In this document: positions 6,353 to 59,011 of the stretch, piece by piece
How the letters are laid out: each line of letters opens with the position of its first letter
Numbering within the stretch: position 1 is the first letter of the stretch
NCBI GenBank assembly: GCA_947311115.1
Contig: CAMZKE010000029.1
Coordinates: 10,385-74,384 of the forward strand
DNA: 64,000 bases
Reading direction: 5' to 3'
Source: an uncultured Bacteroidales bacterium
GTDB lineage: Bacteria > Bacteroidota > Bacteroidia > Bacteroidales > JAFGXI01
The notes under the pieces: generated by a model
Seen by the model: the letters and a program-made list of their open reading frames with translations, nothing else
The model's database searches: none
Told to the model about the DNA's origin: nothing
Position numbers and translations under genes: made by a program

Positions 6353-6361
6353 ATTTTATTA

Positions 6362-8236: not shown

Positions 8237-8242
8237 ATCTGT

Positions 8243-10826: not shown

Positions 10827-10828
10827 TT

Positions 10829-11714: not shown

Positions 11715-11724
11715 ATAATAGGGT

Positions 11725-12249
11725 TTATCCGTAAATTTTTAATAAAACTTTTTCGAAAGGTTCAGCTATTTCTTTAAATGCTTCTTCCGGATTTTCTGTT
11801 GCTACATCAATCCAATGTATATACATTGTATCATCAATTACATCAATTGTAAGTGTACCAGGTGTAAGTGTGATACTGTTTGCTAAAATCATTTTAGCAA
11901 AATCGTTTGTTAGTTTAGTTTTTATTTCAACAATACCCGGATTAATAGGTAGTGCAGGGTTTATAACTCTAACAGCTACATCAAGATTTGCTTTAATAAG
12001 GGCTATTATAAAAACAAAAAAGTATTGAACCAAAAAAATAATTTTATGAGGCATCAATACTTGTAGTCCGCAGCACGAGAAGTATTTGTTGGTTAATAAA
12101 CCGAGAATTAAACTTACAAATGCTCCTGTTAAAACTTCGGCTAATTGAATATCGGCAAAAGAGCCGGGCCAAGTAAAAGCATTCCAAATAATAAACACCA
12201 TTATAAAGGTGTATAAAAATTTGCTTATAGATGATTTTCCGTCTTGCAT
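11725..12249 (-). CDS. MrpE/MnhE-like subunit (MbxA-like), first gene of operon
   Basis: 'LANSITLTPGTLTIDV' signature of MnhE. A TAnnTTTG-like box (TATTTTTG) lies about 20 nt upstream on the minus strand. Confidence 0.8.
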   Translation of the reverse strand: MQDGKSSISKFLYTFIMVFIIWNAFTWPGSFADIQLAEVLTGAFVSLILGLLTNKYFSCCGLQVLMPHKIIFLVQYFFVFIIALIKANLDVAVRVINPALPINPGIVEIKTKLTNDFAKMILANSITLTPGTLTIDVIDDTMYIHWIDVATENPEEAFKEIAEPFEKVLLKIYG

Positions 12250-12414
12250 TTTAATCTTCTTAAAATTTATACAAAAATATAATTATATACATTTTTAGTT
12301 AGGTATATATTTGTGTTTTTTAACAGATTTTTTAATTTGTTCTCTGTCTAAATAGGGGAGAGACGCAAGTGTTGGATTGTTTAAATATATTATGATTTGT
12401 TAGTAATTTAAATT

Positions 12415-36414: not shown

Positions 36415-36525
36415 TAAAAAACTTTTTAAAGTTTTATTGTTTCATATTGTTGATATAATTAGTTTATATTGTATCAATTCATAACTATATAAACTTTCAA
36501 TTTTATAAACTTTTAACTTAATAAA

Positions 36526-39500
36526 ATGATAAATAATATAATAAATTTTTCAATAAAAAATAAGGCGTTGGTATGGCTTATGACAATTGGTTTAATAATA
36601 GGAGGAATATATTCTATGACCAAAGTTCCGCTCGATGCAATGCCTGATATTACTAATAATCAAGTATTGGTAATAACTACAGCACCTAATCTCGGAACCG
36701 AAGATATAGAGCGTTTTGTAACCTATCAGGTTGAATTGGCTGTAGCAAATTTACCCGATGTTGTAGAAATACGTAGTGTTTCGCGTTTTGGTTTATCTGT
36801 TGTAACCATAGTGTTTGAAGAAAGTGCCGGCAAATATCTGCCAAGACAGTTGGTAAGTGAGGCATTAAGCGATATTAAAGAAAAAATTCCCGAAGGTTTT
36901 GGTGAACCTTTTATGGCACCAATAAGCACAGGCTTGGGCGAAATATATCAATATACGCTTGAAGTAGCACCGGGTTTTGAAGACAAGTATGATGATATGC
37001 AACTGCGAACTATGCAAGATTGGATAGTAAAACGCCAAATGGCAATGTTGCCAGGAGTGGTCGAAGTAAACTCGTTTGGTGGAAGGCAAAAGCAATACGA
37101 AGTTGCAATAAACCCCGATAAGCTTAAAAGTATGGGCGTTAGTATGTCTGATGTTTATAAAGCTCTTGAAAAAAACAATCAGAATATAGGAGGCGCATAT
37201 ATCGAAAAAAATCATCAAGCCAATTTTATTCGTGGCGAGGGCTTAATGCGTTCCAAAAAAGATTTAGAAAACACTTTGGTAAAAAATATTGATGGCCAAG
37301 CCATTTTTATTCGCGATGTTGCCACTGTTAAGTTCGGAAACTTTGTGCGTTATGGGGCGTTTTTAGAAAACGGGAAAGGCGAAGCCGTTGGCGGTATTGT
37401 AATGATGCTAAAAGGGGCAAACTCAAACGACGTGATAAAAGCCGTAAAAGAACGAGTGGCACTTATTCAAAAATCTTTACCCGAAGGTGTAAGTATAAAA
37501 CCATTTTTAGACCGTAGCAAACTTATAAAACATACAACATCAACAGTAGCCGAGAATTTAGCAATGGGGGCACTTATCGTAATATTTATTTTGGTGCTTT
37601 TTTTAGGAAACTTACGAGGAGGGTTAATTGTTGCATCAACAATTCCTTTGGCATTGCTTTTTGCTTTTATTATGATGCACATTTTTGGAGTTTGGGCTAA
37701 CTTAATGAGTTTAGGAGCGTTAGATTTTGGTATTTTGGTTGACGGAGCAGTAATTATTGTAGAAAGTATGATTTTTTATTTGCATCGAAAAAATATTATA
37801 GGCACTAAATTATCACAAGAAAAACGCGATAACATTGCATATAAATCAGCAAGCAAAATGATGAATTCTGCATTTTTCGGACAATTAATTATTCTAATTG
37901 TTTTTATTCCTATTTTAGCTCTCGAAGGTGTTGAAGGTAAAATGTTTATACCAATGGCTTTAACCTTTGGTTTTGCTGTTGTTGGAGTTATGCTTCTTTC
38001 ATTAACTTATATTCCAATGTTAGCAGCAACATTTTTAAAACCACCAAAAACCACCAAAAAATCTTTTGGAGATAAAATTATCAATAAACTCGAAAATTTC
38101 TACAATCCAATTATCGATTGGGCATTACGCAAATCGAGTATAGTTATATCAGTATCCTTAATTCTTTTGCTTGTGGGTGGTTTTCTGTTTTCGAGAATGG
38201 GAGCAGAATTTATTCCAAAATTAGATGAAGGCGATTTTGCATTTCAAACTTTTTTTAAGCCCGGCACGTCGCTTAGCGAGGTAACCCAAACTACAAATAA
38301 AATTCATAAATTAATTATGGATAAATTCCCCGACGAAATTGAAAGTGTGCAGGGTAGAATTGGAGTTGCCGATATTCCTATGGACCCTATGCCCCTAGAT
38401 ATTGCCGATAATTTTGTAATATTAAAACCAAAAAAAGATTGGACAAAAGTAAAATCTAAAGCCGAATTAATTGAAAAAATAGAAGAAGAATTATCTGTTT
38501 TTACAGGAATTAATTACGAATTTACTCAACCCATCGAGATGCGTTTTAACGAACTGCTTACAGGGGTTAGAGAAGATATTGCCATTAAATTATATGGCGA
38601 CGATTTAAATATTATTTCGGAAAAAGCACAAGAAATAGCAAGTTTAGTTTCCGGAATTCGTGGTGTAGCAGGCGTAAAAGCCGAAGCCACAAAAGGTTTG
38701 CCTCAGATTACCGTAAAATATAATAGAAATATGATGGCACGTTACGGATTAAATATTTCTGATGTAAATAATATAATAGAAACGGCTTTTAGTGGTGGAG
38801 TAGCAGGTAAGATATACGAAGGCGAACGAATGTTCGATTTGGTTGTGCGTTTAGACAAAGCACATAGAACAAGCATCGACGATATCAGAAATTTATTTGT
38901 GAACTTACCAAACGGGCAACAAATTCCTTTGCAAGAGGTTGCTAATATTGATTATAAACCCGGACCTATGCAAATTAGTAGAGATAATACAAATAGAAGA
39001 ACTTATGTTGGAATTAATGTTGAAGATAGAGATATCAAATCATTAGTTAACGAAATTCAAGATGTTTTAGATGCCAAACTAAAATTGCCAACCGGTTATT
39101 ATATCCGATATGGTGGAGCATTCGAGAATTTAGAACGTGCAAGCAAAAAATTAACTTTAGTTGTACCTCTGGCTCTGGCTTTAATATTTATGTTGGTGTT
39201 TTTTGCCATAAAATCGTTTAAGCAAACATTAATGATATACATTGCCATACCTTTTGCTGCTGTGGGTGGTATTTTCTCGCTTTACTTACGTGATATGCCT
39301 TTCAGCATTTCTGCCGGCGTTGGTTTTATTGTGCTTTTTGGTGTAGCTGTACTTAATGGATTGGTGCTAATATCAGGATTTAATGAGCTAAAAGCCGAAG
39401 GTAAATTTAATATTATTGATATCGTTAAAAAAGGCTCTATTCGTAGAATTAGACCCATTTTATTAACAGCATCTACCGATATTTTAGGATTTCTACCAAT

Positions 39501-40854
39501 GGCAATTTCAACATCGGCAGGAGCCGAAGTGCAACGTCCTTTAGCAACAGTTGTTATTGGTGGCATGATTACATCTACCATATTAACGCTTATTGTTTTA
39601 CCAATTTTATATAAATGGATAGAAACTAAAAAAATGAAAACACCTAAATTAAATTTATCTGCGGCAAGCGTAGTTTTGCTAATTGCTTTTTTAGGATTTT
39701 CGAGCAATACAAATGCTCAAACTACAACTTATAATTTGCAGCAAGTTTTAGATACTGCAAAAGCAAATTATCCGGCTATAAAAGCGGCACAATTTAATGT
39801 GGAAAAGCAAAAAGCATTAAAATCTACAGCTTGGGATTTTGGCTCTACTAATATTTTTACAGGTAGAGAGGAGCAAGGTAACGGGCAAGTTGGTATTCAA
39901 AATGTAATTGGAATTGGGCAATCTGACATCGATATTTTTAGTATCCCTGCAAAAGGAAATTTGGCTAAAGCCAGAACAGAACAAGCGGTTCAACAACAAA
40001 TTTTAACAGAGTTAAAGCTAAAAAAAGATGTAAAAACAGCTTGGTATAAAGCCGTTTATGCAAAAAAGAATATGCAACTTTATTTGGTTTTAGATAGCTT
40101 ATACACCGATTTTTTACAAGCAACAGAACTTAGATATAAAACAGGAGCTAGTTCAAAAATTGAGTTTTTAACTGCATCGAGTAAGTTTAATGAGCTAAAA
40201 ATAAATATGCAACAAGCCGAAAGTAAATATTATTCTGCTTTGCAGAATCTAAATAAGTATTTATTATGTAAAACTGCTTTCGATATCGACATTAAAAATA
40301 GCAAGCAAAATATATTTATTAATACTGCTGACAGTCTGGATAATAGTCCTTTGCTTAGTTATTACGCAATGCAAACCCAACTTGCAAAAGCCCAATGGAA
40401 AAGCGAAAAAGCTAATCTATTACCAAAATTTAATTTTGAATATAAAAATCAATCTATTGATGGAGTAAGCGGCTTTAACGCTTGGCAAGTAGGTGTTTCT
40501 GTTCCTTTGGTATTTTTTTCTCAAAATGGAAAGAACAAAGCAGGCAGAATGGATTATCAGATTGCTAATGCCGAATTTGAGCAAAATAAATTACAAATAA
40601 ATTCTAATTATTTGCAACTGATAAACAGATACAATGTTCTAAAAAAAACTATGGAATATTATAACGATATTGCAATTCCTTTAGCCGATGAGCAGATTAA
40701 TGCATCTAATATTGCATTTAAAGCCGGAGGTATAGATTATATACAATTTATTCAGAGTTTGGAAAGTGCTATCGAGATAAAGCAAGTTTATCTTAAACAA
40801 GAAGCAGAATATTATATTTTGCAAGCAGAATTAAATTATTTAATAGGAAAATAA
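36526..40854 (+). CDS. CzcA-family heavy-metal RND pump fused in frame to a TolC/CzcC-type outer-membrane factor
   Basis: Residues 1-1036 are CzcA-like ('DFGILVDGAVIIVE', 12 TM segments, ends 'LPILYKWIETKK'). Residue 1037 onward reads 'MKTPKLNLSAASVVLLIAFLGFSSNTNAQ' (signal-peptide-like) plus a 400-aa TolC-family repeat. No stop codon at the junction (ATG 39634-39636 is in frame). Confidence 0.85.
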   Translation: MINNIINFSIKNKALVWLMTIGLIIGGIYSMTKVPLDAMPDITNNQVLVITTAPNLGTEDIERFVTYQVELAVANLPDVVEIRSVSRFGLSVVTIVFEESAGKYLPRQLVSEALSDIKEKIPEGFGEPFMAPISTGLGEIYQYTLEVAPGFEDKYDDMQLRTMQDWIVKRQMAMLPGVVEVNSFGGRQKQYEVAINPDKLKSMGVSMSDVYKALEKNNQNIGGAYIEKNHQANFIRGEGLMRSKKDLENTLVKNIDGQAIFIRDVATVKFGNFVRYGAFLENGKGEAVGGIVMMLKGANSNDVIKAVKERVALIQKSLPEGVSIKPFLDRSKLIKHTTSTVAENLAMGALIVIFILVLFLGNLRGGLIVASTIPLALLFAFIMMHIFGVWANLMSLGALDFGILVDGAVIIVESMIFYLHRKNIIGTKLSQEKRDNIAYKSASKMMNSAFFGQLIILIVFIPILALEGVEGKMFIPMALTFGFAVVGVMLLSLTYIPMLAATFLKPPKTTKKSFGDKIINKLENFYNPIIDWALRKSSIVISVSLILLLVGGFLFSRMGAEFIPKLDEGDFAFQTFFKPGTSLSEVTQTTNKIHKLIMDKFPDEIESVQGRIGVADIPMDPMPLDIADNFVILKPKKDWTKVKSKAELIEKIEEELSVFTGINYEFTQPIEMRFNELLTGVREDIAIKLYGDDLNIISEKAQEIASLVSGIRGVAGVKAEATKGLPQITVKYNRNMMARYGLNISDVNNIIETAFSGGVAGKIYEGERMFDLVVRLDKAHRTSIDDIRNLFVNLPNGQQIPLQEVANIDYKPGPMQISRDNTNRRTYVGINVEDRDIKSLVNEIQDVLDAKLKLPTGYYIRYGGAFENLERASKKLTLVVPLALALIFMLVFFAIKSFKQTLMIYIAIPFAAVGGIFSLYLRDMPFSISAGVGFIVLFGVAVLNGLVLISGFNELKAEGKFNIIDIVKKGSIRRIRPILLTASTDILGFLPMAISTSAGAEVQRPLATVVIGGMITSTILTLIVLPILYKWIETKKMKTPKLNLSAASVVLLIAFLGFSSNTNAQTTTYNLQQVLDTAKANYPAIKAAQFNVEKQKALKSTAWDFGSTNIFTGREEQGNGQVGIQNVIGIGQSDIDIFSIPAKGNLAKARTEQAVQQQILTELKLKKDVKTAWYKAVYAKKNMQLYLVLDSLYTDFLQATELRYKTGASSKIEFLTASSKFNELKINMQQAESKYYSALQNLNKYLLCKTAFDIDIKNSKQNIFINTADSLDNSPLLSYYAMQTQLAKAQWKSEKANLLPKFNFEYKNQSIDGVSGFNAWQVGVSVPLVFFSQNGKNKAGRMDYQIANAEFEQNKLQINSNYLQLINRYNVLKKTMEYYNDIAIPLADEQINASNIAFKAGGIDYIQFIQSLESAIEIKQVYLKQEAEYYILQAELNYLIGK

Positions 40855-42196: not shown

Positions 42197-42763
42197 ATGT
42201 CTAAAGCTACCTTGCATATAAAAAATATGGTTTGTCCTCGCTGCATTACAGCAGTTGAGGACACACTAACTAATTTAAAAATTAAGTTTGAATCTGTTAA
42301 ATTAGGTGAGGCAGAAGTTTTTAATGATAATATTGATTACAATTTGCTTGATATAAGATTAAAAGCAATTGGTTTTGAGCTTATTAACAACGATGATAGT
42401 AAAATTATTGAAACAATAAAAACTATAATTATCAATATTATTCATCATTCTGATAGAGAAACACTTAATAAAAATTTTTCAAAGATTTTATCCGATAAAA
42501 CAAAAAAGCCATATACCTACCTTTCTAATTTATTTTCAGAGAAAGAGAATATAACTATCGAAAAATATATAATTCTACAAAAAATAGAAAAAGTAAAAGA
42601 ATTAATTTCGTATAAAGATTTAAGTTTTTCGGAAATTGCTTATAAATTACATTATAGCAGTCCTGCACATTTATCAACGCAATTTAAAAAAATAATGGGC
42701 TGTTCGTTATCCGAATACAAAAAAATGAATATTGATGATAGAAAAACTTTAGATGTGCTGTAA
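42197..42763 (+). CDS. AraC-family regulator with N-terminal heavy-metal-associated (HMA) domain
   Basis: 'LHIKNMVCPRCITAVEDTL' (MxCxxC HMA loop). C-terminal HTH 'LSFSEIAYKLHYSSPAHLSTQFKKIMGCSLSEYKK'. Confidence 0.75.
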   Translation: MSKATLHIKNMVCPRCITAVEDTLTNLKIKFESVKLGEAEVFNDNIDYNLLDIRLKAIGFELINNDDSKIIETIKTIIINIIHHSDRETLNKNFSKILSDKTKKPYTYLSNLFSEKENITIEKYIILQKIEKVKELISYKDLSFSEIAYKLHYSSPAHLSTQFKKIMGCSLSEYKKMNIDDRKTLDVL

Positions 42764-43182
42764 TGAAAGAAAGTATAAACAAATCATTAGAAATAAAAAA
42801 GGTAAAACCAACTGCTATGCGTCAATTGGTGCTAGATATACTTTCTAAACAAGAGCATGCTATTGGTTTGCCCGAGTTAGAAGCACAATTTGCACAAGCC
42901 GACCGCACAACGCTTTACCGAACTCTAAAAACATTTGTTACTAAAAAGGTAATTCACAGTATTGACGATGGAACAGGCACAATAAAATATGCCATTTGCA
43001 AAGACACTTGCCAGTGTAATCCCAACGAACTACATGTGCATTTTTATTGTACAAAATGCGAAAAAACTACTTGCTTAACAGATATTGCAATTCCTGATGT
43101 GCCTCTGCCACAATATTATATTGCCGAAAATATTAATATGGTGGTTAAAGGTTTATGCGATAAGTGCAGTAAGAAAAATTAG
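42763..43182 (+). CDS. Fur-family metalloregulator (Zur/Fur-like)
   Basis: 'PTAMRQLVLDIL...TLYRTLKTF' winged helix. Two CxxC pairs, 'CTKCEKTTC' and 'CDKCSKK'. Its start overlaps the stop of the AraC gene. Confidence 0.8.
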   Translation: MKESINKSLEIKKVKPTAMRQLVLDILSKQEHAIGLPELEAQFAQADRTTLYRTLKTFVTKKVIHSIDDGTGTIKYAICKDTCQCNPNELHVHFYCTKCEKTTCLTDIAIPDVPLPQYYIAENINMVVKGLCDKCSKKN

Positions 43183-43745: not shown

Positions 43746-43952
43746 ATGGAAATCCAATTAAAATCAATAATAACTTGTCCGCAATGTGGGCATAAAAAAG
43801 AAGAAACAATGCCTGTGGATTCATGTCAGTTTTTTTACGAATGCGAGAATTGCCATTTTGTAATGAAACCAAAAAAAGGCGATTGTTGCGTTTATTGTTC
43901 TTATGGCACTGTTCCTTGCCCATCAATTCAAAAAAATAAATCGTGCTGTTAA
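43746..43952 (+). CDS. Small Cys-rich metal-binding protein (GDCCVxC-motif family)
   Basis: 68 aa with 12 Cys: 'CPQCGH', 'CENCHF', 'KKGDCCVYCSYG', C-terminal 'KSCC'. Confidence 0.65.
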   Translation: MEIQLKSIITCPQCGHKKEETMPVDSCQFFYECENCHFVMKPKKGDCCVYCSYGTVPCPSIQKNKSCC

Positions 43953-43961
43953 ATCTTTGTT

Positions 43962-44747
43962 ATGATAAAAACTAGTTATTATATAGCTAAAATGGATTGA
44001 GCTTCCGAAGAGTCCTTAATCAGGATTAAGCTGGAAGATATTTCTGAAATTATTGATTTGCAATTCGATTTAGATAATAGAATTTTAAATGTTTTTCATT
44101 CAACAGAAAACCCTGAAATAGAAAAGCGAATACATTCTCTTAAATTGGGTTGCGATATTAAATCGAGAAGTACGGTAGATAAGCAAATTACCAAGGGAGA
44201 TAAGTATGACAAAAAGTTATTGTGGTGGGTTTTATCTATTAATTTAGCTTTCTTTTTTATAGAAAGTATTTTTGGTTTGTTATCAAAATCTATGGGTTTA
44301 GTTGCCGATAGTTTAGATATGTTTGCCGATGCTCTAGTTTACGGATTAAGTATATGGGCAGTTGGTTCTGCTATATCAAAAAAGCAAAAAGTTGCTAAAA
44401 TAAGCGGATATTTTCAAATTAGTTTGGCTTTACTTGGTTTTATAGAAATTATTCGCAGAATATTCTTCGAAAATATTACGCCTAATTATCTAACAATGAT
44501 TTGGATATCGGCTTTTGCGTTAATAGGCAATGCTGCAAGTATGTTTATTTTAAATAAAACCAACAGTAAAGATGCAAATATTTTGGCAAGCAAAATTTTT
44601 ACATCAAACGATGTCATAATTAATTTGGGTGTAATATTAGCAGGTTTCTTGGTTATGATAACTCAATCTTTAATTCCGGATTTAGTTATAGGAACACTTG
44701 TGTTTATTATTGTAGTTAAAGGAGCGATTAAAATATTAAAATTATAA
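43962..44747 (+). CDS. CDF-like cation transporter with N-terminal HMA-like domain; in-frame TGA (43998-44000) at the predicted metal-ligand Cys position
   Basis: ATG 43962 lies 9 nt after the preceding stop. Translation gives 'MIKTSYYIAKMD[TGA]ASEESLIRIKLEDISEIIDLQFDLDNRILNVFH...'. The TM domain has 'LLWWVLSINLAFFFIE...GLVADSLDMFADALVYGLS'. The ORF track starts it at TTG 44058, in the middle of the HMA fold. Confidence 0.6.
44001..44038 (+). other. Nested hairpin immediately 3' of the in-frame TGA (SECIS-like candidate)
   Basis: CTTCC(44002-06)/GGAAG(44033-37) encloses AG/CT and CTTAAT(44015-20)/ATTAAG(44025-30), with apical loop CAGG. Confidence 0.4.
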
Positions 44748-44833: not shown

Positions 44834-45253
44834 ATGAAAAAAGTCATTAACATATTAGTTTCAATAGTTTTTCTACTAAGTTTTGTGGGAGTTCAGGTGC
44901 ATAAGCACTACTCAAACGGAAAACTTTACAGCATTGCTGTTTATCAAGAAGCTGAGAGCTGTTGCCAGGATATGGAACATTGCGAAATGGCTAATATGGC
45001 ATCGTGCCATCATCAGCAAACAAATGACTGTTCTTGCGAAGATGAAACAGAAGTTTTTCAATTAATTAATAATTTTGTAGTAAGCGAAAAACAAGAAATT
45101 GCAGAAATGCCTGTTTTCGATGTAGCTACTACTTGTTGCTCCCAAACAAACATTCAAAAAGAATATTTAAGTTTAAATATCAGAGTTATTGATATTTTGC
45201 CACCCGGTAACTCGCTTGACACACAATCGGAATTTGGTGTATTTCTTTGTTGA
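44834..45253 (+). CDS. Small membrane-anchored Cys/His-rich protein (HYC_CC_PP-like, tentative)
   Basis: N-terminal TM segment, 'VHKHYSNG', 'ESCCQDMEHCEMANMASCHHQ', 'TTCC', 'ILPPGN'. Lies upstream of the second RND system. Confidence 0.5.
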   Translation: MKKVINILVSIVFLLSFVGVQVHKHYSNGKLYSIAVYQEAESCCQDMEHCEMANMASCHHQQTNDCSCEDETEVFQLINNFVVSEKQEIAEMPVFDVATTCCSQTNIQKEYLSLNIRVIDILPPGNSLDTQSEFGVFLC

Positions 45254-45404: not shown

Positions 45405-45788
45405 ATGAAATATTATATAAATAAAACCATAAATGCAGATTTAGAAACTGCAACAGAATTAGTAAAAGAAGAACTTCAAAAAGAAGGTTTCGGAATTGTA
45501 ACCCAGTTCGATGTAAACAAAGCATTAAAAGAAAAATTAGATGTTGATTTTCGTCAATATAGAATTCTTGGTGCTTGTAATCCTGCTTTTGCTTTGCGTT
45601 CAATAAACACAGAGGATAAAATAGGAACTATATTGCCATGTAACGTAATGTTACAAGAAATTGATAATGGTGTAGAAATAGCCATTATTAATCCGAAACA
45701 AATGGTTGTAGATATCGATAATGCCGAGATGAAAGCCATTGCTCATGAAATATTTGATAAAATGCAAAATGTAATATCAAACATCTAA
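45405..45788 (+). CDS. DUF302-domain protein
   Basis: 'GFGIVTQFDVNKALKEKLDVDFRQYRILGACNP' matches the conserved DUF302 core. Confidence 0.7.
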   Translation: MKYYINKTINADLETATELVKEELQKEGFGIVTQFDVNKALKEKLDVDFRQYRILGACNPAFALRSINTEDKIGTILPCNVMLQEIDNGVEIAIINPKQMVVDIDNAEMKAIAHEIFDKMQNVISNI

Positions 45789-45800: not shown

Positions 45801-48800
45801 ATGTTAAATAAAATAATAAAATTCTTTTTAGAAAATAAGCTGGTTACTATCCTCCTCCTCACCGTCTTTTTGGCTTGGGGAGTAGTAACCTCGCCTTTTG
45901 GTTGGGATACCGGCATTTTACCAAGCGACCCCGTTCCGGTAGATGCTATTCCCGATATTGGCGAAAATCAACAAATTGTTTATACTGAGTGGGCAGGGCG
46001 TTCGCCTCAGGATATCGAAGACCAAGTTTCGTATCCTCTAACAACTGCCTTGCTGGGTATTCCCGGTGTAAAAACTATCCGTAGTAATTCTATTTTTGGT
46101 GTTTCAAGTATCTATATCATTTTTGATGAGGATATAGAGTTTTATTGGAGTCGAAGTAGAATTCTTGAAAAACTAAATTCTTTGCCTGCCGGAACTTTAC
46201 CCGATGGTGTAACACCCGCATTGGGTCCTGATGCTACGGCACTTGGGCAAGTATATTGGTACACTTTGGAAGGTCGCGATAAAAATGGTAAACCTGCCGG
46301 AGGTTGGGATCCGCAGGAACTGCGTTCTTTGCAAGATTTTTATGTTAAATATGCTTTAACATCTGCCAAAGGTGTTTCCGAAGTTGCATCTATTGGAGGT
46401 TATATTAAAGAATATCAAGTAGATATAGACCCAAATGCAATGAAAGCACAAGGTGTGAATATAGCACAAATAATTAATGCAGTAAAAAAATCGAACCTCG
46501 ATGTTGGAGCAAGAACCATAGAATTTAACAAGGCAGAATATTTAATTCGTGCTTTGGGATATGTAAAATCATTGGAAGACATAGAAAAATCGGTAGTTGC
46601 AGTTAAAAACAACGTGCCTATTCGCATAAAAGATGTGGCTCGTGTTAATTTTGGACCTGCTACTCGTCGTGGTGGTTTAGATAAAGGTGGAGCCGATGCC
46701 GTAGGTGGTGTTGTTGTGGCACGTTACGGAGCAAATCCTTTGCAGGTTATCAACAATGTAAAAGATAAAATTAAAGAGATTGAAGCCGGTTTACCAAGCA
46801 AAAAATTAGCAGATGGAAGCACTTCAAAAGTAACTATTGTCCCGTTTTACGACCGTTCAGGCTTAATTCACGAAACACTGGGCACCCTTGAAGAAGCGCT
46901 TTCTCTCGAAATACTTATCAGTATTTTGGTGGTGTTAATTTTGGTTTTTAATCTGCGTGCATCGTTCTTAATTTCAAGTCTGTTGCCAATTGGCGTATTA
47001 ATGACTTTTATAGTAATGCGTAAATTTGGTGTAGATGCAAATATTGTAGCTCTTTCGGGTATTGCAATTGCCATTGGAGTAATGGTAGATGTGGGGGTAG
47101 TATTTACCGAAAATATTATCCGGCATACCGGTTTGCCCGAAAATAAAGGGGCAAAAGGTAAAGAACTGATGAATGTAATTTATACATCTACTATTGAGGT
47201 TGCTCCGGCAGTTTTAACAGCCATTGCAACAACAGTAATTAGTTTTATGCCTGTGTTTGCAATGCAAGCAGCCGAAGGTAAATTATTTAGACCATTAGCT
47301 TTTACAAAAACATTTGTAATGTTAGCAGCTTTGGTTGTCGGCTTAGTTATTATTCCAACTTTAGCACATATTATTTTTTCAATTAATCTTAACGGAAAAA
47401 AAATTCGTAGATATTCAAATATTGTTTTGGCTATTGGAGGTTTATCCTTAATATTTTTCGGACATTATTTTCTTTCGTTTATAATTGTTGCTGTTGCTAT
47501 AAATAATCTTTTTTCTCATTTTATTATCTCATTTTTTAAGAAAACTAAAATTGACAATTTAACACAATTTATAAATATAGGGCTTATTCTTTTATTAGTT
47601 GTAAAATACCTATCGGCTCAATGGATGCCTCTTGGAGCACAATATAGCGAGTTTACAAACTTAATCTTTGTTGCAAGTGTAATAGCTGCACTTCTTTTGT
47701 TTTTAATATCGGTTATATATATGTATCCTAAAATAATGACTTGGGCATTAAGTCATAAATGGACATTTTTATCTATTCCTATTTTAGTAATTCTCTTTGG
47801 AATGACCGCTTGGCAAGGTGTTGATAATATTTTTGGTTTTATGCCAAAGTTTATTACCGAAACTAAAACTTGGAACTCGTTAGAGGAAACTTTTCCCGGA
47901 ATTGGCAAAGAATTTATGCCAAGTTTAGATGAGGGCTCTTTTTTATTGATGCCTACAACAATGCCTCATTCGGGTGTGCAAGAAAATATTGATGTTATCC
48001 GATTGCTCGATAAAAAAGTTAATAATATTCCGGAAATCCAAAATGTAGTGGGAAAATGGGGTAGAGTAAACTCTGCTTTAGACCCTGCACCAATTTCCAT
48101 GTACGAAAATGTTATAAATTACAAATCTGAATATATTTTAGATGAAAGTGGTCATCGTGTGCGTTTTAAACTTAATGATGATGGTGCTTTTGTTCTAAAG
48201 AACGGCAAAACATATAATCCAAAAGATGGTTTTAAAGTAATCGAAAAAGATGAATTAGTTCCTGATGAAGACGGAGAATATTTCCGTCAGTGGCGAGACG
48301 ATATTCATTCGCCTAACGATATATGGAATGAGATTGTTGCCAATTCGCAAATACCCGGTTTAACCTCTGCACCAAAGTTGCAGCCTATACAAACTCGCTT
48401 GGTAATGTTGGCAACTGGTATGCGTGCCCCAATGGGAATAAAAGTTTTTGGCCCCGATTTAGAAAGTATCGAAAAAGTAGGTTTAAGAATTGAAACTCTT
48501 CTTAAAGATGTGAAAGGCGTTTCTAAAATGTCGGTTTTTGCTGATAGAGTAGTAGGTAAACCATATTTGGAAATTCATATTAATCGCGATGCTATTGCCC
48601 GTTACGGACTAACAATTCAAGATTTTCAGAATTATATTAGTTCTGCTGTGGGTGGTATGACACTTAGTTCAACTGTTGAAGGTCGTGAGCGTTATCCAAT
48701 TCGTGTGCGTTATGCTCGTGAATACCGCGATAATCCGGAAGATTTAAAAAAGATGTTAATTCCAACACCATCAGGTGTACAAGTTCCGTTGAGCGAATTA

Positions 48801-49634
48801 GCTACAATTGAATATACACGTGGAGCTCAATTAATTAAAAGCGAAAATACTTTCCTTGTCGGATATGTAATTTTCGATAAAAAAGAGGGCTTTGCCGAAG
48901 TTGATGTGGTTGAAAATGCACAAGATTATCTGCAAAAGAAAATTGATAGTGGCGAGTTAGTAATACCTGCCGGAGTAAATTATAAATTTACAGGAAACTA
49001 CGAAAATCAAATTCGTGCAACTAAGCGATTAATGATTGTTATACCAATTGCATTGTTAGTTATTTTCTTGATTCTATATTTTCAATTTAAATCCGTAGTA
49101 GGAGCAACACTGATATTCTCAGGAATAATAGTTGCTTTTTCGGGAGGGTTTATAATGCTTTGGCTATATGGTCAGCCTTGGTTTATGAATTTTTCTATTG
49201 GTGATGTACATCTGCAAAATCTGTTTCAGATTGACACCATAAATTTAAGTGTGGCTGTTTGGGTAGGCTTTATTGCCTTATTCGGAATTGCAACCGATGA
49301 TGGTGTTTTAATAAGCACCTACATAAAGCAATTATTCGACGAAAAAGCACCAAAAACAGTATCCGAAGTTCGTGCAAAAATATTAGAAGCAGGAACAAAG
49401 CGTGTTCGTCCTGCAATTATGACAACGGCAACTACGCTAATTGCATTATTGCCTGTGCTTACATCAACCGGAAAAGGTTCCGATATTATGGTACCAATGG
49501 CTATCCCAATTTTTGGAGGAATGACTATTGCCATTTTAACAATCTTTGTTGTACCTGTACTTTACAGTATGTGGCAAGAAAGTTTATTGAAGAAGAATTC
49601 TATTACAGAAAAGGAGGCTAACAATGAAAACTAA
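45801..49634 (+). CDS. CusA/CzcA-family heavy-metal RND pump, enlarged (1277 aa)
   Basis: CusA-like N-terminus ('DAIPDIGENQQIVYTEW'). 'GKEFMPSLDEGSFLLMP' after TM7. C-terminal 'VRPAIMTTATTLIALLPVL'. Extra hydrophobic block near 47400-47740 and an extra periplasmic block near 48120-48390. Confidence 0.85.
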   Translation: MLNKIIKFFLENKLVTILLLTVFLAWGVVTSPFGWDTGILPSDPVPVDAIPDIGENQQIVYTEWAGRSPQDIEDQVSYPLTTALLGIPGVKTIRSNSIFGVSSIYIIFDEDIEFYWSRSRILEKLNSLPAGTLPDGVTPALGPDATALGQVYWYTLEGRDKNGKPAGGWDPQELRSLQDFYVKYALTSAKGVSEVASIGGYIKEYQVDIDPNAMKAQGVNIAQIINAVKKSNLDVGARTIEFNKAEYLIRALGYVKSLEDIEKSVVAVKNNVPIRIKDVARVNFGPATRRGGLDKGGADAVGGVVVARYGANPLQVINNVKDKIKEIEAGLPSKKLADGSTSKVTIVPFYDRSGLIHETLGTLEEALSLEILISILVVLILVFNLRASFLISSLLPIGVLMTFIVMRKFGVDANIVALSGIAIAIGVMVDVGVVFTENIIRHTGLPENKGAKGKELMNVIYTSTIEVAPAVLTAIATTVISFMPVFAMQAAEGKLFRPLAFTKTFVMLAALVVGLVIIPTLAHIIFSINLNGKKIRRYSNIVLAIGGLSLIFFGHYFLSFIIVAVAINNLFSHFIISFFKKTKIDNLTQFINIGLILLLVVKYLSAQWMPLGAQYSEFTNLIFVASVIAALLLFLISVIYMYPKIMTWALSHKWTFLSIPILVILFGMTAWQGVDNIFGFMPKFITETKTWNSLEETFPGIGKEFMPSLDEGSFLLMPTTMPHSGVQENIDVIRLLDKKVNNIPEIQNVVGKWGRVNSALDPAPISMYENVINYKSEYILDESGHRVRFKLNDDGAFVLKNGKTYNPKDGFKVIEKDELVPDEDGEYFRQWRDDIHSPNDIWNEIVANSQIPGLTSAPKLQPIQTRLVMLATGMRAPMGIKVFGPDLESIEKVGLRIETLLKDVKGVSKMSVFADRVVGKPYLEIHINRDAIARYGLTIQDFQNYISSAVGGMTLSSTVEGRERYPIRVRYAREYRDNPEDLKKMLIPTPSGVQVPLSELATIEYTRGAQLIKSENTFLVGYVIFDKKEGFAEVDVVENAQDYLQKKIDSGELVIPAGVNYKFTGNYENQIRATKRLMIVIPIALLVIFLILYFQFKSVVGATLIFSGIIVAFSGGFIMLWLYGQPWFMNFSIGDVHLQNLFQIDTINLSVAVWVGFIALFGIATDDGVLISTYIKQLFDEKAPKTVSEVRAKILEAGTKRVRPAIMTTATTLIALLPVLTSTGKGSDIMVPMAIPIFGGMTIAILTIFVVPVLYSMWQESLLKKNSITEKEANNEN

Positions 49635-50853
49635 AATAATAATATTATCAATTATCCTTGCTTTCAGTAGTTCATTGTTTGCACAAGATATTCTAAATCA
49701 ATATTTAGAAACAGCTGCTAAAAACAATCCTGCATTAAAAGCAAAATTTAATGAATATAATGCGAGTCTGGAAAAAGTGCCACAAGTAGGGGCTTTGCCC
49801 GACCCAACACTAACATTCGGATATTTTGCAATGCCCGTAGAAACTAAAAACGGACCGCAAAACCTTAAAGTATCGTATACACAAATGTTTCCTTGGTTTG
49901 GAACACTTAACAGCAAAGAGGATATTTTTGTTAGTGCTGCAAAATCGAAATACGAAGATTTTGAAGATGCAAAATCAAAACTGTTTTTCGATGTCAAATC
50001 GACTTATTACGATTTGTATTACATAAAAAAAGGAATTGATATAACGCTTGAAAACATTACAATTCTTGAAACTTTTAAGCGTTTGGCTTTAATTAAAATA
50101 GAAGCAGGAACTGCATCAGGAGTTGACGAACTGAGGGTGGAATTGGAACTAAACGATTTAGAAAATACTTTGGCATTGCTAAAAGATAAATGGTTTGTAA
50201 ATACTGTTAAATTTAATAATTTATTAAATGTTGATAATAACAGCGATATCCAAATTCCTGAAACACTTTGGATTGATGATATTAAGTTTTCGCGACAAGC
50301 TATTATTGATAGTTTAACGCAAAATAATCATCAACTCAAAAGTTTAGATTTTATGAAAGAGAGTTTTGCACACAGCGAGCATTTGGGCAAAAAACAAGGC
50401 ACTCCGAATATTATAGTAGGTGTTGATTATACATCTATTGGTAAATCAGGGGTTTCGCCCGATGCAGGAAAAGATGCTCTTTTGTTTAAAGTTGGGATAA
50501 CTATTCCGTTGTATCGTAAAAAATACTCGGCAATGGTTAACGAAGCTCAAATACAACAACAAGTTGTTGAAGACAAAAAGCAAAATCAAGTTAATGTGTT
50601 AGAAACTTTATTTGAGAAAGTTTATAGCGAATATGCCGATGCTAACCGTAGGATTACTCTTTACGAAAAGCAAAGCGAATTAGCAAAACGTGCTATAAAA
50701 TTACTCGAAAACGAATATGCTAACAATGGCAAAAACTTTGAGGAAATACTAAGAATGGAACGCAAAGTTTTAAAATATTCTATCGATTTGGAAAAAGCAA
50801 GAGCTGATAAACAAGCTTCGATAGCATTTATAAATTATTTAATGGGAATGTAA
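49624..50853 (+). CDS. TolC-family outer-membrane factor (CusC-like)
   Basis: Signal peptide 'SSSLFAQ'. Two TolC-type repeats. 11-nt overlap with the pump gene. Confidence 0.8.
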   Translation: MKTKIIILSIILAFSSSLFAQDILNQYLETAAKNNPALKAKFNEYNASLEKVPQVGALPDPTLTFGYFAMPVETKNGPQNLKVSYTQMFPWFGTLNSKEDIFVSAAKSKYEDFEDAKSKLFFDVKSTYYDLYYIKKGIDITLENITILETFKRLALIKIEAGTASGVDELRVELELNDLENTLALLKDKWFVNTVKFNNLLNVDNNSDIQIPETLWIDDIKFSRQAIIDSLTQNNHQLKSLDFMKESFAHSEHLGKKQGTPNIIVGVDYTSIGKSGVSPDAGKDALLFKVGITIPLYRKKYSAMVNEAQIQQQVVEDKKQNQVNVLETLFEKVYSEYADANRRITLYEKQSELAKRAIKLLENEYANNGKNFEEILRMERKVLKYSIDLEKARADKQASIAFINYLMGM

Positions 50854-50855: not shown

Positions 50856-51332
50856 ATGGAAACAACACTAAAAAACATATTAAACGAGGCAGTTAAATTA
50901 GAATTATTAATGAGTAAATTGTATTATCTTTTTCAACAAAAGTTTCCCCAAGATTCTAATTTTTGGGGCAAATTATCGACAGAAGAAAAAGAACATGCTC
51001 AAATAATTTTAAAATATATTCCATTTTTAGAAATTAAGATTGATGATTTACATGGATTTGAATCAGCTAGTTTGTCTTCGTTGGTATTGAATAATATGCA
51101 AATAAATGAAGTGATAAATAATTTCACAGATAATAATACGAGAGAAGATGCTTTTAGAGAATCCATAAAATTGGAAAATAGTTCGAGTGAAGAAAACTAT
51201 AGATTTCTATTAAATTCAGATACTGATTCAGAAATAATATCAATTTTTAAAACTTTAAATGGTGAAGACCGAAAGCATTATAAAAGAATAGTTGAATACG
51301 TAATAAAAGAAAAAATAAATATTAAAGAATAA
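50856..51332 (+). CDS. Ferritin-like four-helix-bundle protein (possible di-metal site)
   Basis: Paired motifs 'E...EEKEHA' and 'E...EDRKHY' (E...ExxH twice). Embedded between the OMF and adaptor genes. Confidence 0.45.
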   Translation: METTLKNILNEAVKLELLMSKLYYLFQQKFPQDSNFWGKLSTEEKEHAQIILKYIPFLEIKIDDLHGFESASLSSLVLNNMQINEVINNFTDNNTREDAFRESIKLENSSSEENYRFLLNSDTDSEIISIFKTLNGEDRKHYKRIVEYVIKEKINIKE

Positions 51333-51333
51333 G

Positions 51334-52911
51334 ATGATGAAATCAAATATATTTAAAAAAATAGAGAAAAGAGATATTGTAATAGTAATAATAACTCTTG
51401 TAATAGGCTTAGGAATAGGAAGTATATTCTTTGGCTCATCAAATAGCGAAAGCCACGAAGGGCATAATCATGCCGAAAATGGTATCTCAGAACAGACTGT
51501 TTGGACTTGCTCAATGCACCCGCAGATAAAGCAAGACAAAGAAGGAAATTGCCCAATTTGTGGAATGGAGTTAATACCGTTAAAAACAGAAAAATCAAGT
51601 AAAAAAGCCGTAAAAGAGATGTGGACTTGTTCTATGCACCCGCAGATAATGAAGGATAAACCGGGAAATTGCCCAATTTGCGGAATGGAACTTATACCAA
51701 TGAAAACCGATAACGGTGGCGACGAAGCAGATCCAAACGAAATACAAATGACCGAGAGTGCAATGAAATTAGCCGAGGTACAAACCTTTATAGTTAAAAA
51801 AGGTGCACCTGAAAAAACGGTTCGTTTATTAGGAAAAGTTAAACCTGATGAGAGAAATATTGCAGCCCTTACAGCTCGTTTTGGTGGCAGAATTGAAAAG
51901 CTATATGTTAATTATACAGGTCAGTATGTTAATAAAGGGCAAAAATTGGCATCTATATATTCGCCGGAGCTAAACACAGCACAGCAAGAATTGCTTGATG
52001 CTGCAAAGTATAAAGATAGCAACCCATCGTTTTACAAAGCTACTCGCAATAAATTAAAACTTTGGGAATTAACTGATGCACAGATTGATGCCATAGAAAA
52101 CAGTTCGGAGCCAAGTATTTATTTTGATATTTTAGCTCCAATTTCGGGAACAGTTACTCGTCGCGATGTTGCTATTGGCGATTATGTAAAAGAGGGTAAT
52201 CCTTTATTTGAGCTAATAAATTTAAGCAAAGTTTGGATAATGCTTGATGCTTACGAAAGCGATTTGCCTTGGATAAAAATGGGTGATAAAGTTTCGTTTA
52301 CATTGCAATCTTTACCCGGAAAAACTTATACAGCAAAAGTATCTTATATCGATCCGTTTATTGATGCAAAAACTCGTGTTGCAGAGGTTCGTTTAGAAAT
52401 AAACAATCCTAAAATGGATTTTAAGCCTGAGATGTTTGTAAATGCAATATTGCAATCTAAAGTTGCCGAAAACTCAGAGCAACTGCTTATTCCAAAAACT
52501 TCGATACTTTGGACAGGAAAGCGTGCTGTGGTTTATGTTAAAGTGCCAAATAGAGAAACACCAAGTTTCTTATACCGAGAAATAACTCTGGGAGCAGAAA
52601 CAGGTAATTTTTATGTGGTTGCACAAGGTTTAAATGAAGGCGAAGAAATAGCATCTAACGGTGTGTTTAAAATTGATGCTTCGGCTCAACTTTTAGGTAA
52701 GCAAAGTATGATGAATCCTGATGCTGACTTAGGGAAACCAAACACAATGCCCGGAATGGATATGAGTGGTTCTGATGATAATTCTTCATCTGAAAAAGAA
52801 ATGAGCGATGAAGAAATGAAAGCAATGGATAAAAAATCGGAAAAAGCTGTTCCCGAAAAGGTAAAATCAGAAGAATCTGAAATGAAATGTGCGCCTGGTA
52901 AATGTGGTTAA
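51334..52911 (+). CDS. RND periplasmic adaptor (CusB-like) with two tandem N-terminal heavy-metal-binding domains and a Met-rich tail
   Basis: 'WTCSMHPQIKQDKEGNCPICGMELIP' and 'WTCSMHPQIMKDKPGNCPICGMELIP'. MFP core. Tail 'MMNPDADLGKPNTMPGMDMSG...MKCAPGKCG'. Confidence 0.85.
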   Translation: MMKSNIFKKIEKRDIVIVIITLVIGLGIGSIFFGSSNSESHEGHNHAENGISEQTVWTCSMHPQIKQDKEGNCPICGMELIPLKTEKSSKKAVKEMWTCSMHPQIMKDKPGNCPICGMELIPMKTDNGGDEADPNEIQMTESAMKLAEVQTFIVKKGAPEKTVRLLGKVKPDERNIAALTARFGGRIEKLYVNYTGQYVNKGQKLASIYSPELNTAQQELLDAAKYKDSNPSFYKATRNKLKLWELTDAQIDAIENSSEPSIYFDILAPISGTVTRRDVAIGDYVKEGNPLFELINLSKVWIMLDAYESDLPWIKMGDKVSFTLQSLPGKTYTAKVSYIDPFIDAKTRVAEVRLEINNPKMDFKPEMFVNAILQSKVAENSEQLLIPKTSILWTGKRAVVYVKVPNRETPSFLYREITLGAETGNFYVVAQGLNEGEEIASNGVFKIDASAQLLGKQSMMNPDADLGKPNTMPGMDMSGSDDNSSSEKEMSDEEMKAMDKKSEKAVPEKVKSEESEMKCAPGKCG

Positions 52912-53046: not shown

Positions 53047-53063
53047 AAGGTAAAAATACTTTG

Positions 53064-53464
53064 TGGAGCTGGAGGGGCTCGAACCCTCGTCCAAACAAGT
53101 GACAAAACAGCTTTCTACATGTTTAGTTTATTTTTAATTTTCGACTTAAAAACCGGCAATAAACTACCAATATTTAAGCTTATTCTCTATATTTCGCAAT
53201 TTGACCGAGACTCTTCAAACTGCTAGTTTATCTTTATGAGCATCTCAATTACACTTTGTTTATAAACATTGTCCAAAATGAGAGATGTCTTGTCCAAAGA
53301 CCTAGTCTAAGGATTAAGCTTAATCTACTAAACTTCGATTATGCAGCAAGAGCAAAATTGTTTTCGCCAATTAAAAGTTGTGTAACATCGTTTTACGAGA
53401 ACTGTTACCGTACTCGACATGCTTACTATCCCATCATCCTTGCAGTCAAAACCAAGTCAACCCC
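53064..53464 (-). ncRNA. ssrA: tmRNA (SsrA)
   Basis: Minus strand starts GGGGTTGACTTGG... and ends ...GGACGAGGGTTCGAGCCCCTCCAGCTCCA (T-arm plus acceptor, with a G3:U pair). Tag ORF GGCGAAAACAATTTTGCTCTTGCTGCATAA (53339-53368) encodes GENNFALAA*. Confidence 0.92.
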
Positions 53465-57407: not shown

Positions 57408-58178
57408 TCATTTTTCTAATTTTAATTCAACCGTAACAGGGCAGTGGTCAGAATGATGAACCTCAGGCATTATGTATGCATTAGTAATTCTATCTTTAAG
57501 TGCGTTACTTACCATGTGGTAATCAATACGCCAGCCAACGTTTCTTGGTCTAGAATTTGCTCGGTAACTCCACCACGAGTATTTTTCGGCACTATCATCA
57601 AACATTCTAAAGCTATCAACAAAACCACTTTCTAAAAAGTTTGTAACCCATTCGCGTTCTTCAGGTAAAAAGCCGGAAACACCTTTTTTGTTTTTCGGGT
57701 TATTTATGTCAATTTCTTTATGGCATATATTATAGTCGCCACAAAGAATAATATTTTTCTGCGTTTTTTGTAGCTCGTTTGTGTATTTTTGCACATCGGC
57801 AAGGTATTCCATTTTGTAATCTTGACGAGGACCTCCTGCTGTTCCACTAGGAAAATATGAATTTATTAATGTGAAATCTTTAAAATCAGCACGTAAAAAG
57901 CGACCTTCATCATCGTATTTTTTAATGTCAATACCATATTCTATATTATTCGGTTCTATTTTAGTAAATATTGCCACACTGCTATAACCTTTTTTTTGTG
58001 CAGAAAACCAATATTGATGATATCCAAGTTCTGTAAATACGCCAATATCTAACTGTTCTTTATGAGCTTTAGTTTCCTGAATACATATTATATCAGGATT
58101 CTCTTCTTTAAGCCATTCAATAAAGCCTTTTTTTATTGCTGCTCTTATTCCGTTTACATTATATGATATTATTTTCAT
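57408..58178 (-). CDS. xth: Exodeoxyribonuclease III
   Basis: 'MKIISYNVNGIRAA', 'ICIQETK', 'GDYNICH', 'WRIDY', 'SDHCPV'. ATG 58176-58178 is preferred over the GTG at 58208, which lies inside the repeat array. Confidence 0.9.
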   Translation of the reverse strand: MKIISYNVNGIRAAIKKGFIEWLKEENPDIICIQETKAHKEQLDIGVFTELGYHQYWFSAQKKGYSSVAIFTKIEPNNIEYGIDIKKYDDEGRFLRADFKDFTLINSYFPSGTAGGPRQDYKMEYLADVQKYTNELQKTQKNIILCGDYNICHKEIDINNPKNKKGVSGFLPEEREWVTNFLESGFVDSFRMFDDSAEKYSWWSYRANSRPRNVGWRIDYHMVSNALKDRITNAYIMPEVHHSDHCPVTVELKLEK

Positions 58179-58201
58179 CTTATTTCTGTTATTAAATTTA
58201 T

Positions 58202-58334
58202 ATCTCACATCTCATATCTCAAGTCTCAAGTCTCACATCTCACATCTCACATCTCAAGTCTCACATCTCACATCTCAAATCTCACATCTCAAATCTCATA
58301 TCTCAAGTCTCACATCTCAAATCTCACATCTCAC
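58202..58334. repeat. 19 tandem copies of the heptanucleotide [A/G]TCTCA[C/A/T]
   Basis: Counted directly from the sequence. The minus strand reads (TGAGA-NN)19. Two degenerate copies extend into the rsmI stop codon. Confidence 0.95.
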
Positions 58335-58336
58335 AT

Positions 58337-59011
58337 CTACTTCTCACCTTCAATAATTATAACTATTTCTCCTTTTACTGTTTTTGCTTCAAAGTAGATA
58401 ATAAGCTCAGCAAGTGTTCCTCTAGCATTTTCTTCGTGTAGTTTACTTAATTCTCTTGATACTGATGCCAATCTGTTTTCGCCTAAATATTCGGCAAATT
58501 GTTTAAGAGCTTTTACTAAGCGATGTGGTGATTCGTAAAAAATCATTGTTTTTTTCTCGCCAATAAGTGCTTTAAGTCTTGTTTGTCGTCCTTTTTTTTG
58601 TGGTAAAAAGCCTTCAAAAACAAATCTGTCGTTTGGTAAACCAGAGTTTACAAGAGCAGGTATTAAAGCGGTAGCTCCGGGTAAAGTTTCTACTTCAATG
58701 TCGTTTTTTATACATTCTCTAACAATTAAAAAGCCGGGGTCTGATATTGCAGGAGTACCTGCGTCTGAAATTAATGCAATATTCTCGCCACTGTTTATCC
58801 TATTTATAATATTGTCTAAACTCTTATGTTCGTTAAATTTATGATGAGCAATTACATGTTTTCCCGATATTTGGTAGTGTCTCAAAAGTTTTGACGATGT
58901 ACGAGTATCCTCTGCAAGTATTACATCTACTTCTTTAAGTACTTCAATTGCTCTGTATGTTATATCCTTTAAATTCCCTATTGGAGTAGGAACTATGTAT
59001 AATTTACTCAT
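58337..59011 (-). CDS. rsmI: 16S rRNA (cytidine1402-2'-O)-methyltransferase
   Basis: 'LYIVPTPIGNLKDITYRA...ILAEDTR', 'SDAGTPAISDPG', 'LPGATA'. Confidence 0.9.
   Translation of the reverse strand: MSKLYIVPTPIGNLKDITYRAIEVLKEVDVILAEDTRTSSKLLRHYQISGKHVIAHHKFNEHKSLDNIINRINSGENIALISDAGTPAISDPGFLIVRECIKNDIEVETLPGATALIPALVNSGLPNDRFVFEGFLPQKKGRQTRLKALIGEKKTMIFYESPHRLVKALKQFAEYLGENRLASVSRELSKLHEENARGTLAELIIYFEAKTVKGEIVIIIEGEK

Follow-up and report, generated by a model that had tools for sequence, protein, structure and literature searches.

Candidate selenocysteine codon at the invariant metal-ligand cysteine of an HMA-CDF exporter from an uncultured Bacteroidales bacterium

Introduction

In a review of May 2026, 119 families of prokaryotic selenoproteins, i.e., proteins containing selenocysteine (Sec, U), were compiled (PMC13188914). 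Those nearest to the gene described here comprise an E1-E2 P-type ATPase in its Sec form, the Cu/Zn efflux transporter of the SO_0444 family, and both mercuric transport and mercuric reductase-like proteins. The ATPase (TIGR01525, representative ABB15669.1) carries a UxxC motif in its N-terminal HMA domain (PMC13188914 Table 1; PMC2398784) and the Cu/Zn efflux transporter (NF033936) a UxC motif (PMC13188914 Table 1). None of the 119 families listed in that review is a CDF, PF01545 or PF00403 entry. The present study concerns a gene for an HMA-CDF metal exporter in a stretch of 64,000 nucleotides from an uncultured Bacteroidales bacterium (GenBank assembly GCA_947311115.1, contig CAMZKE010000029.1), referred to below, as a whole, as the window. 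Its reading frame is interrupted by a single TGA that falls on a cysteine position invariant among the homologues and that recurs in distant relatives. This TGA probably encodes Sec.

For the bacterial Sec insertion sequence (bSECIS), the consensus given in the same review comprises a loop of 3-9 nt, a stem of 4-16 bp, a G at the first or second loop position, a distance of 16-37 nt from the UGA and a minimum free energy (MFE) of -7.5 kcal/mol or lower, some selenoprotein genes falling outside this model (PMC13188914). Our literature searches returned nothing relevant on an HMA-CDF selenoprotein or on any characterised HMA-CDF protein.

In-frame TGA at an invariant cysteine

The gene and its parts are the following:

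43962..44747, + strand: HMA-CDF metal exporter, full read-through coding sequence (Pfam and end-to-end homologues)
43998..44000, + strand: in-frame TGA, candidate Sec codon, residue 13 (aligned with the invariant Cys13)
43962..44174, + strand: HMA-like (ferredoxin-fold) domain, residues 1-71, with M-D-[U]-A-S-E-E in the beta1-alpha1 loop (AlphaFold2 model of P0001, Foldseek)
44190..44744, + strand: six-helix CDF transmembrane domain, residues 77-261 (PF01545, AlphaFold2 model, Foldseek)

The upstream gene ends with TAA 43950-43952, and the ATG at 43962 begins 9 nt further on. From this ATG, the read-through frame comprises 261 codons followed by TAA 44745-44747; the TGA at 43998-44000 is its sole interruption and no other lesion is present. 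The list of open reading frames (ORFs) starts the gene instead at TTG 44058, i.e., codon 33, with a product of 229 aa. The initial annotation had placed the start at the ATG and the TGA at the position of a metal-ligand Cys. Its coordinates (ATG, 9-nt gap, TGA and complementary segments 3' of it) and its read-through peptide were all reproduced from the sequence, and the alignment bears out the assignment of the TGA. Indeed, among 67 full-length Cys-form homologues, M11, C13, E16 and E17 are invariant (67/67) and D12, P14 and S15 reach 90% conservation or more, so that the consensus motif reads M-D-C-P-S-E-E. The window TGA falls on column C13 and the window motif is M-D-U-A-S-E-E.

The same codon occupies this column in two other Bacteroidota-type metagenome lineages. 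One is represented by L006 (protein P0011, 67% identical, an N-truncated record), whose DNA reads ATG GAT TGA GCT TCA GAG GAG. The other is represented by L002, L003, L004 and L005 (protein P0031, 63% identical, likewise N-truncated), four separate assemblies from JGI, ENA and Logan with two alleles, TGA GTA and TGA GCA. Across the Bacteroidota-type sequences, the peptide of the 12 codons 5' of the TGA is conserved through synonymous changes (TAT/TAC, ATA/ATC, GCT/GCC), which argues that translation begins upstream and runs through the UGA. The UGA is followed by Ala in the window, L006 and L005 and by Val in L002, whereas at least 90% of the Cys forms have Pro there, and Ala at this position is a derived feature common to the window, L006 and L005. 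The closest relative of the window gene, L001 (89% identical), has TGC-CCC where the window has TGA-GCT.

An exact-pattern scan for M-D-TGA-x-S/T-E-E over genome and metagenome collections gave 106 matches. Most were chance matches in short frames, while 12 were full HMA-CDF genes with 254-260 intact codons after the TGA and a conserved N-terminal peptide before it. As sources of the 12, TGA forms of a delta type were found in Syntrophorhabdus / 'Deltaproteobacteria UBA5329' (L007, L048/L060, L062 and L085; motif U-P-T-E-E) and in Smithellaceae / Smithella (L026/L054 and L030/L082; motif U-K-S-E-E), and a further TGA form (L029) on one short contig binned as Lysobacterales. Within the Syntrophorhabdaceae group, L007, L048, L062 and L085 are mutually 80-94% identical and the TGA is kept throughout; within the Smithellaceae group, L026 and L030 are 83% identical. 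From pairwise identities, the TGA forms divide into five or more groups, between which Cys forms are interspersed. Hence, with the same column carrying TGA in several diverged lineages, the position of this codon is far beyond chance, and its recurrence in distant relatives at an invariant Cys column makes Sec its most likely meaning.

A profile search seeded with delta-type forms retrieved at least 16 clusters (90% identity) of N-truncated proteins of 221-246 aa from Syntrophorhabdaceae and Smithellaceae, one cluster being found on 53 contigs. Six of these clusters correspond to TGA genes of the pattern scan; the other ten are new and are known as proteins, not at the DNA level. The first residues of the truncated proteins, [ML][IV]R[SL]RLE, come immediately behind the TGA column. 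In public records, the TGA genes are thus cut to 221-246 aa and named 'cation transporter', some with the label '[Syntrophorhabdaceae bacterium]' or '[Smithellaceae bacterium]', so that the full proteins are missing from databases.

Four truncated-looking proteins considered as further TGA forms (P0138, P0141, P0142 and P0166) were rejected, their DNA showing TGC/TGT or a run of Ns; the three with TGC or TGT served as Cys-form controls. Separately, two HMA-like ORFs with M-D-TGA-x-S-E-E have no CDF domain behind them, one in Marinobacter daqiaonensis (L035) and one in a metagenome-assembled genome of Pseudobdellovibrionaceae (L040). These could be pseudogenes or stand-alone Sec/HMA proteins.

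Hairpin downstream of the TGA

Two nested elements were delineated directly 3' of the TGA:

44011..44027, + strand: conserved hairpin AGUCCU[UAAUC]AGGAUU, 6 bp, apical loop from 16 nt after the UGA (folding and comparison of TGA forms)
44002..44037, + strand: outer helix CUUCCG (44002-07) / UGGAAG (44032-37) enclosing the hairpin (folding)

The initial annotation had drawn a SECIS-like structure from two pairs of complementary segments, CTTCC 44002-06 with GGAAG 44033-37 and CTTAAT 44015-20 with ATTAAG 44025-30, the latter closing a CAGG loop. The segments exist, but the inner stem CTTAAT/ATTAAG folds at only -0.9 kcal/mol and does not survive in L002 and L005; the drawing therefore did not hold. 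The overlapping alternative AGUCCU[UAAUC]AGGAUU reaches -3.7 kcal/mol and is the version conserved in the other TGA forms. The whole element, CUUCCG...AGUCCU[UAAUC]AGGAUU...UGGAAG, has an MFE of -12.3 to -12.8 kcal/mol.

A hairpin of 5-6 bp at a spacing of 16-17 nt is present in all four Bacteroidota-type TGA forms, and its five-pair core helix GUCCN/NGGAU forms in each of them. One pair of the core helix shows a compensatory change from U-A to G-C, resulting from TTA-to-GTA together with AGG-to-CGG. In L002 and L005, the outer helix shows little conservation and a shifted register. In the TGA forms, the local 21-nt hairpin has -4.8 to -5.8 kcal/mol, as against 0 to -2.4 kcal/mol in six of the seven Cys forms, and the window hairpin is more stable than expected from synonymous recodings of the same peptide (z = -3.0, p = 0.008). 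Its stem of 6 bp, its loop of 5 nt, its spacing of 16 nt and its -12.3 kcal/mol with the outer helix all lie within the bSECIS ranges.

The hairpins of the delta-type TGA forms agree with the bSECIS consensus on every point. Examples are CGUCUCA[GGCU]UGAGGCG, with a spacing of 28 nt and -7.9 kcal/mol, and AUCC-G-CUCAA[GGC]UUGAG-GGAU, with -9.2 kcal/mol. In the hairpin stretch, the delta-type peptide is IRSRLE or IRLRLE vs IRMKLE in the Cys forms, a pattern expected where a SECIS element constrains the coding sequence.

Protein architecture

The membrane part of the read-through protein was recognised by Pfam as Cation_efflux (PF01545) at residues 88-260, scoring 46.4 bits (cut-off 26.6) and covering profile positions 2-191 of 198. 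The HMA match (PF00403) at residues 6-60 remained sub-threshold (19.4 bits vs 24.8, E = 1.4e-3). NCBIfam gave generic CDF matches only, all under their cut-offs (TIGR01297, 61.8 vs 82.35), and contained no model specific for the HMA-CDF family. Instead of the GMxCxxC motif of HMA domains, the protein has M-D-(C/U)-x-S-E-E, in which there is only one Cys or Sec. The C-terminal cytoplasmic domain is likewise absent from the window protein, which ends at position 191/198 of the PF01545 profile.

AlphaFold modelling was performed on P0001, a Cys orthologue 89% identical to the window protein (mean predicted local distance difference test score 80). In this model, the N-terminal domain (2-71) consists of strands 2-8, 30-36, 41-46 and 64-71 and helices 14-23 and 51-59. 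Residue 13 lies in the beta1-alpha1 loop, and six transmembrane helices follow the HMA-like domain. A Foldseek search with the N-terminal part retrieved solved HMA domains, including 9rsv_A (TMt 0.89, root-mean-square deviation 1.4) and the yeast and human CCS structures (yCCS, 1jk9/1qup); with the membrane part, it retrieved ZnT1/7/8 and YiiP (E = 2e-5). A PDB sequence search with the HMA domain gave no match, the relation to solved HMA domains coming from the fold search. The beta-alpha-beta-beta-alpha-beta HMA-like fold proposed from the sequence was thus borne out, as was the view that TTG 44058 is a start within this fold. Indeed, codon 33 lies inside strand beta-2 (30-36) of the P0001 model, so that the protein of the ORF list would start mid-fold, cutting this strand.

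More than 7,000 homologues were found among 5.8 billion proteins, nearly all of about 264 aa and aligned with the query from end to end. From profile matches and the model, the gene at 43962-44747 is predicted to encode a heavy-metal exporter in which an N-terminal, cytoplasmic HMA-like domain is fused to a six-helix CDF domain.

Operon context

The neighbouring genes of the cluster identified in the window are:

42197-42763, + strand: AraC-family regulator, with an N-terminal HMA-like segment carrying an MVCPRC motif (Pfam scan)
42763-43182, + strand: Fur-family regulator (Pfam scan)
43746..43952, + strand: GDCCVxC-domain protein (GOS_B family), all-Cys form (NCBIfam NF041374, 104 bits)
44834-45253, + strand: HYC_CC_PP (library scans)
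45405-45788, + strand: DUF302 (library scans)
45801-49634, + strand: RND pump (library scans)
49591-50853, + strand: OEP (library scans)
51319-52911, + strand: membrane-fusion protein with HMBD repeats (library scans)

The operon order is AraC, Fur, a 159-aa protein, GDCCVxC, HMA-CDF, HYC_CC_PP, DUF302, RND, OEP and membrane-fusion protein. This operon, with the AraC and Fur regulators at its head, is conserved in L001, L002 and L117. From its HMA-like MVCPRC segment, the AraC-family protein may be a metal-sensing regulator of the operon. NF041374 is listed as selenoprotein family GOS_B and is a Cys/Sec-switching family (PMC13188914 Table 1). Its gene occurs in L002, L117 and L113 but not in L001.

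Identity between the window and L001 is a mosaic along the operon, with 96% for CzcA, 94% for DUF302, 89% for HMA-CDF, 61% for HYC_CC_PP and 58% for AraC, which suggests recombination within the metal-resistance cluster. Together with the missing GDCCVxC gene in L001, this mosaic implies that the Cys/Sec difference between the two genes may stem from cassette exchange rather than from a point mutation. Cys forms of the HMA-CDF family are common on plasmids. The proposal that the cluster is a probably acquired island was not supported in the window: the cluster does not stand out in GC content, the 3' end of the neighbouring tmRNA has no att-like repeat elsewhere, and no integrase was seen. The tmRNA gene lies at 53061-53464 (- strand; tag GENNFALAA) and borders with its 3' end on the end of the metal-efflux cluster.

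The host appears in the window as a low-GC (31%) Bacteroidota, with GldH, a T9SS sorting domain and DUF4835. Three further observations were made away from the operon. At 36517-40854 (+), one ORF of 1445 aa combines ACR_tran (residues 8-1035) and OEP (1273-1444) and looks like an RND pump fused to an outer-membrane channel. At 58202-58347, about 21 tandem copies of the 7-nt unit ATCTCAC stand upstream of an exo/endonuclease-phosphatase gene (57408-58211, -). At 1185-12282 (-), a Mrp/MBH-like complex (MnhB, MnhE, MnhG and NuoB/C/D/H/L-like proteins) adjoins a SudA/GltD-like Fe-S flavoprotein. This complex is an instance of anaerobe-style energy conservation in a Bacteroidota genome.

Weighing of the selenocysteine reading

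Several results weigh against Sec decoding in the window. The first group concerns the hairpin. Its MFE is not exceptional among dinucleotide shuffles (z = -1.25), 23 of the 200 shuffles folding equally well or better. In the synonymous-recoding test, Cys forms reach z = -1.8 to -4.8, and since several of them score alike, this test does not separate Sec from Cys forms. The covariation is not significant: it amounts to one pair in two independent lineages and is equalled in 81 of 500 shuffles. The seventh Cys form of the local folding comparison, which is the closest relative L001, has a hairpin sequence identical to that of the window. The loop UAAUC is without G, and the bSECIS consensus as a whole therefore does not describe the window element. 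Finally, Rfam scans of 43950-44120 with gathering and permissive thresholds returned no SECIS family, only chance matches to small nucleolar RNAs and internal ribosome entry sites. The initial proposal of a SECIS-like hairpin is thus only partly supported: the hairpin is real, stands at canonical spacing and is kept in TGA forms, but it is weak, lacks the loop G, is identical in a Cys form and is not statistically distinctive. Likewise, the suggested alignment of homologues resolved the Cys vs TGA column clearly, while for the hairpin it yielded a single, non-significant covarying pair.

The second group concerns the host. Pfam scans of nearly all long ORFs of the 64-kb window revealed no selA, selB or selD, and ARAGORN detected nothing but a tmRNA there, with no tRNA-Sec. 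The tRNA scan of 23 related loci gave no tRNAs, and no Sec machinery was found at any related locus. In the pattern scan, no GTDB-representative genome assigned to Bacteroidota contained a TGA form, and an early survey did not find the trait of Sec decoding in Bacteroidetes (PMC1794560).

These host results bear most directly on the possibility of a nonsense allele with a pseudogenised N-terminus. In a host without Sec machinery, the UGA would terminate translation after 12 residues, and the gene would be dead or would at best give a membrane domain shortened at its N-terminus, with translation beginning at a later codon such as TTG 44058; recombination with a Sec-using donor could have brought in the allele. 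The window without Sec machinery, the TGC of a relative as close as L001, the non-canonical hairpin, and an operon of mosaic divergence whose GDCCVxC gene L001 lacks, a pattern suggestive of cassette exchange, are all compatible with such an allele. However, the same TGA is kept in two other diverged Bacteroidota-type lineages (L006; L002-L005), the codons upstream of it are conserved and the 261 codons hold no further lesion. The window also shares with other TGA forms the Pro-to-Ala change, which a random nonsense mutation does not explain. A random stop would strike this very codon in about 1% of cases, given some 100 codons one step from a stop (an estimate, not a computed value). A nonsense allele, the strongest competitor of the Sec reading, is considered unlikely.

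A sequencing or assembly error, with TGC or TGT as the true codon, is highly improbable. The TGA is one base away from the TGC of the orthologue and the source is apparently a metagenome-assembled contig, but the neighbouring codon differs as well (GCT vs CCC), as it does in other TGA forms, and the same TGA occurs in independent JGI, ENA and Logan assemblies. A reading of UGA without a Sec system, through a reassigned code (Trp or Gly) or near-cognate Cys/Trp read-through, is scarcely credible: TGA is a rare stop, ending one of the 48 open frames of at least 150 codons in the window, but it is a genuine one, ending HYC_CC_PP (45251-53), MnhG and the exo/endonuclease-phosphatase, all with full-length family matches, and no other long gene of the 64 kb carries an in-frame TGA, on which grounds a reassigned code was rejected; moreover, Trp or Gly would be senseless at an invariant Cys ligand, and the pattern fits Cys/Sec pairs in taxa known as selenoprotein-rich.

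Taken together, the sequence comparisons make it probable that the UGA at 43998-44000 is decoded as Sec in place of the invariant ligand Cys in this window, and, for the HMA-CDF family as a whole, reading UGA as Sec is well supported. Confidence for the window is held back by the negative early survey, by the lack of a TGA form among GTDB Bacteroidota and by the confinement of the Sec-machinery search to 64 kb.

Discussion

If the UGA is decoded as Sec, the predicted course of events would be as follows. SelB with Sec-tRNA(Sec) would be recruited by the hairpin starting 10-11 nt past the UGA (44011-44027, possibly together with the outer helix 44002-44037). In the resulting protein, the selenolate and the invariant Glu16 and Glu17 would capture, within the cytoplasm, a soft divalent metal, presumably of the Zn, Cd, Pb or Hg class. 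The metal would then be handed to the Asp/Asn site of the membrane domain and exported to the periplasm, from where the adjacent RND/OEP/membrane-fusion system could clear it from the cell.

More broadly, we lean towards the view that HMA-CDF exporters with M-D-U-x-S/T-E-E form an uncatalogued selenoprotein family with several Cys/Sec origins or switches, in Syntrophorhabdaceae, in Smithellaceae and in one clade of Bacteroidota, whose members, the window gene among them, would decode Sec through a SECIS element without the loop G. If the Bacteroidota hairpin does act without the consensus guanine, it would imply a divergent recognition by SelB. Functional Bacteroidota members would mean that Sec decoding, together with a non-consensus SECIS, occurs in a phylum in which early surveys did not find the trait. 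With the HMA-CDF proteins, a metal-transport family would join the prokaryotic selenoproteins, nearly all of which, as listed, are redox enzymes and few of which handle metals. In HMA-CDF proteins, the selenolate would serve as a metal ligand and not as a redox centre.

Comparison with known systems

Since neither the list of 119 families nor NCBIfam holds an entry specific for it, the HMA-CDF family appears to be an unrecognised selenoprotein family. It would be of a known kind, in which Sec replaces a metal-ligand Cys, with the window as its Bacteroidota representative. One parallel is the Sec form of the TIGR01525 ATPase. As proposed for the window protein, its Sec takes the place of a Cys ligand for metal, within the beta1-alpha1 loop of the N-terminal HMA-type domain of a heavy-metal exporter, and was predicted from Cys/Sec pairs. 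In contrast with this ATPase, the window protein has a CDF six-helix module, and its U-x-S-E-E motif offers one chalcogen ligand with carboxylates instead of UxxC. The NF033936 transporter, known from annotation only, is similarly a membrane protein of metal efflux that switches between Sec and Cys, but it belongs to an unrelated family of another architecture. In the NCBIfam and Pfam scans, the read-through protein matched neither TIGR01525 nor NF033936.

The membrane domain resembles that of canonical CDF exporters (YiiP, CzcD, ZitB and ZnT) in its fold and in the acidic residues at the TM2 and TM5 positions. Unlike these exporters, the window protein is without a C-terminal cytoplasmic domain and has an N-terminal HMA-like domain instead. 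The adjacent GDCCVxC/GOS_B protein (NF041374) represents a second Cys/Sec-switching family within the operon; it is a different protein and is in its Cys form here.

A further related system is the Cys-form HMA-CDF family itself (about 264 aa, MDCPSEE), examples of which are found on Prolixibacter, Carboxylicivirga and Maribellus chromosomes and on Flammeovirga, Moraxella and Flavobacterium plasmids. Its members have the same architecture, length and operon neighbours as the window protein and are 50-89% identical to it, but their TGC or TGT followed by Pro is replaced in the window by TGA followed by Ala. At 89% identity, the window (Sec) and L001 (Cys) would constitute a matched pair for what Sec adds to metal capture.

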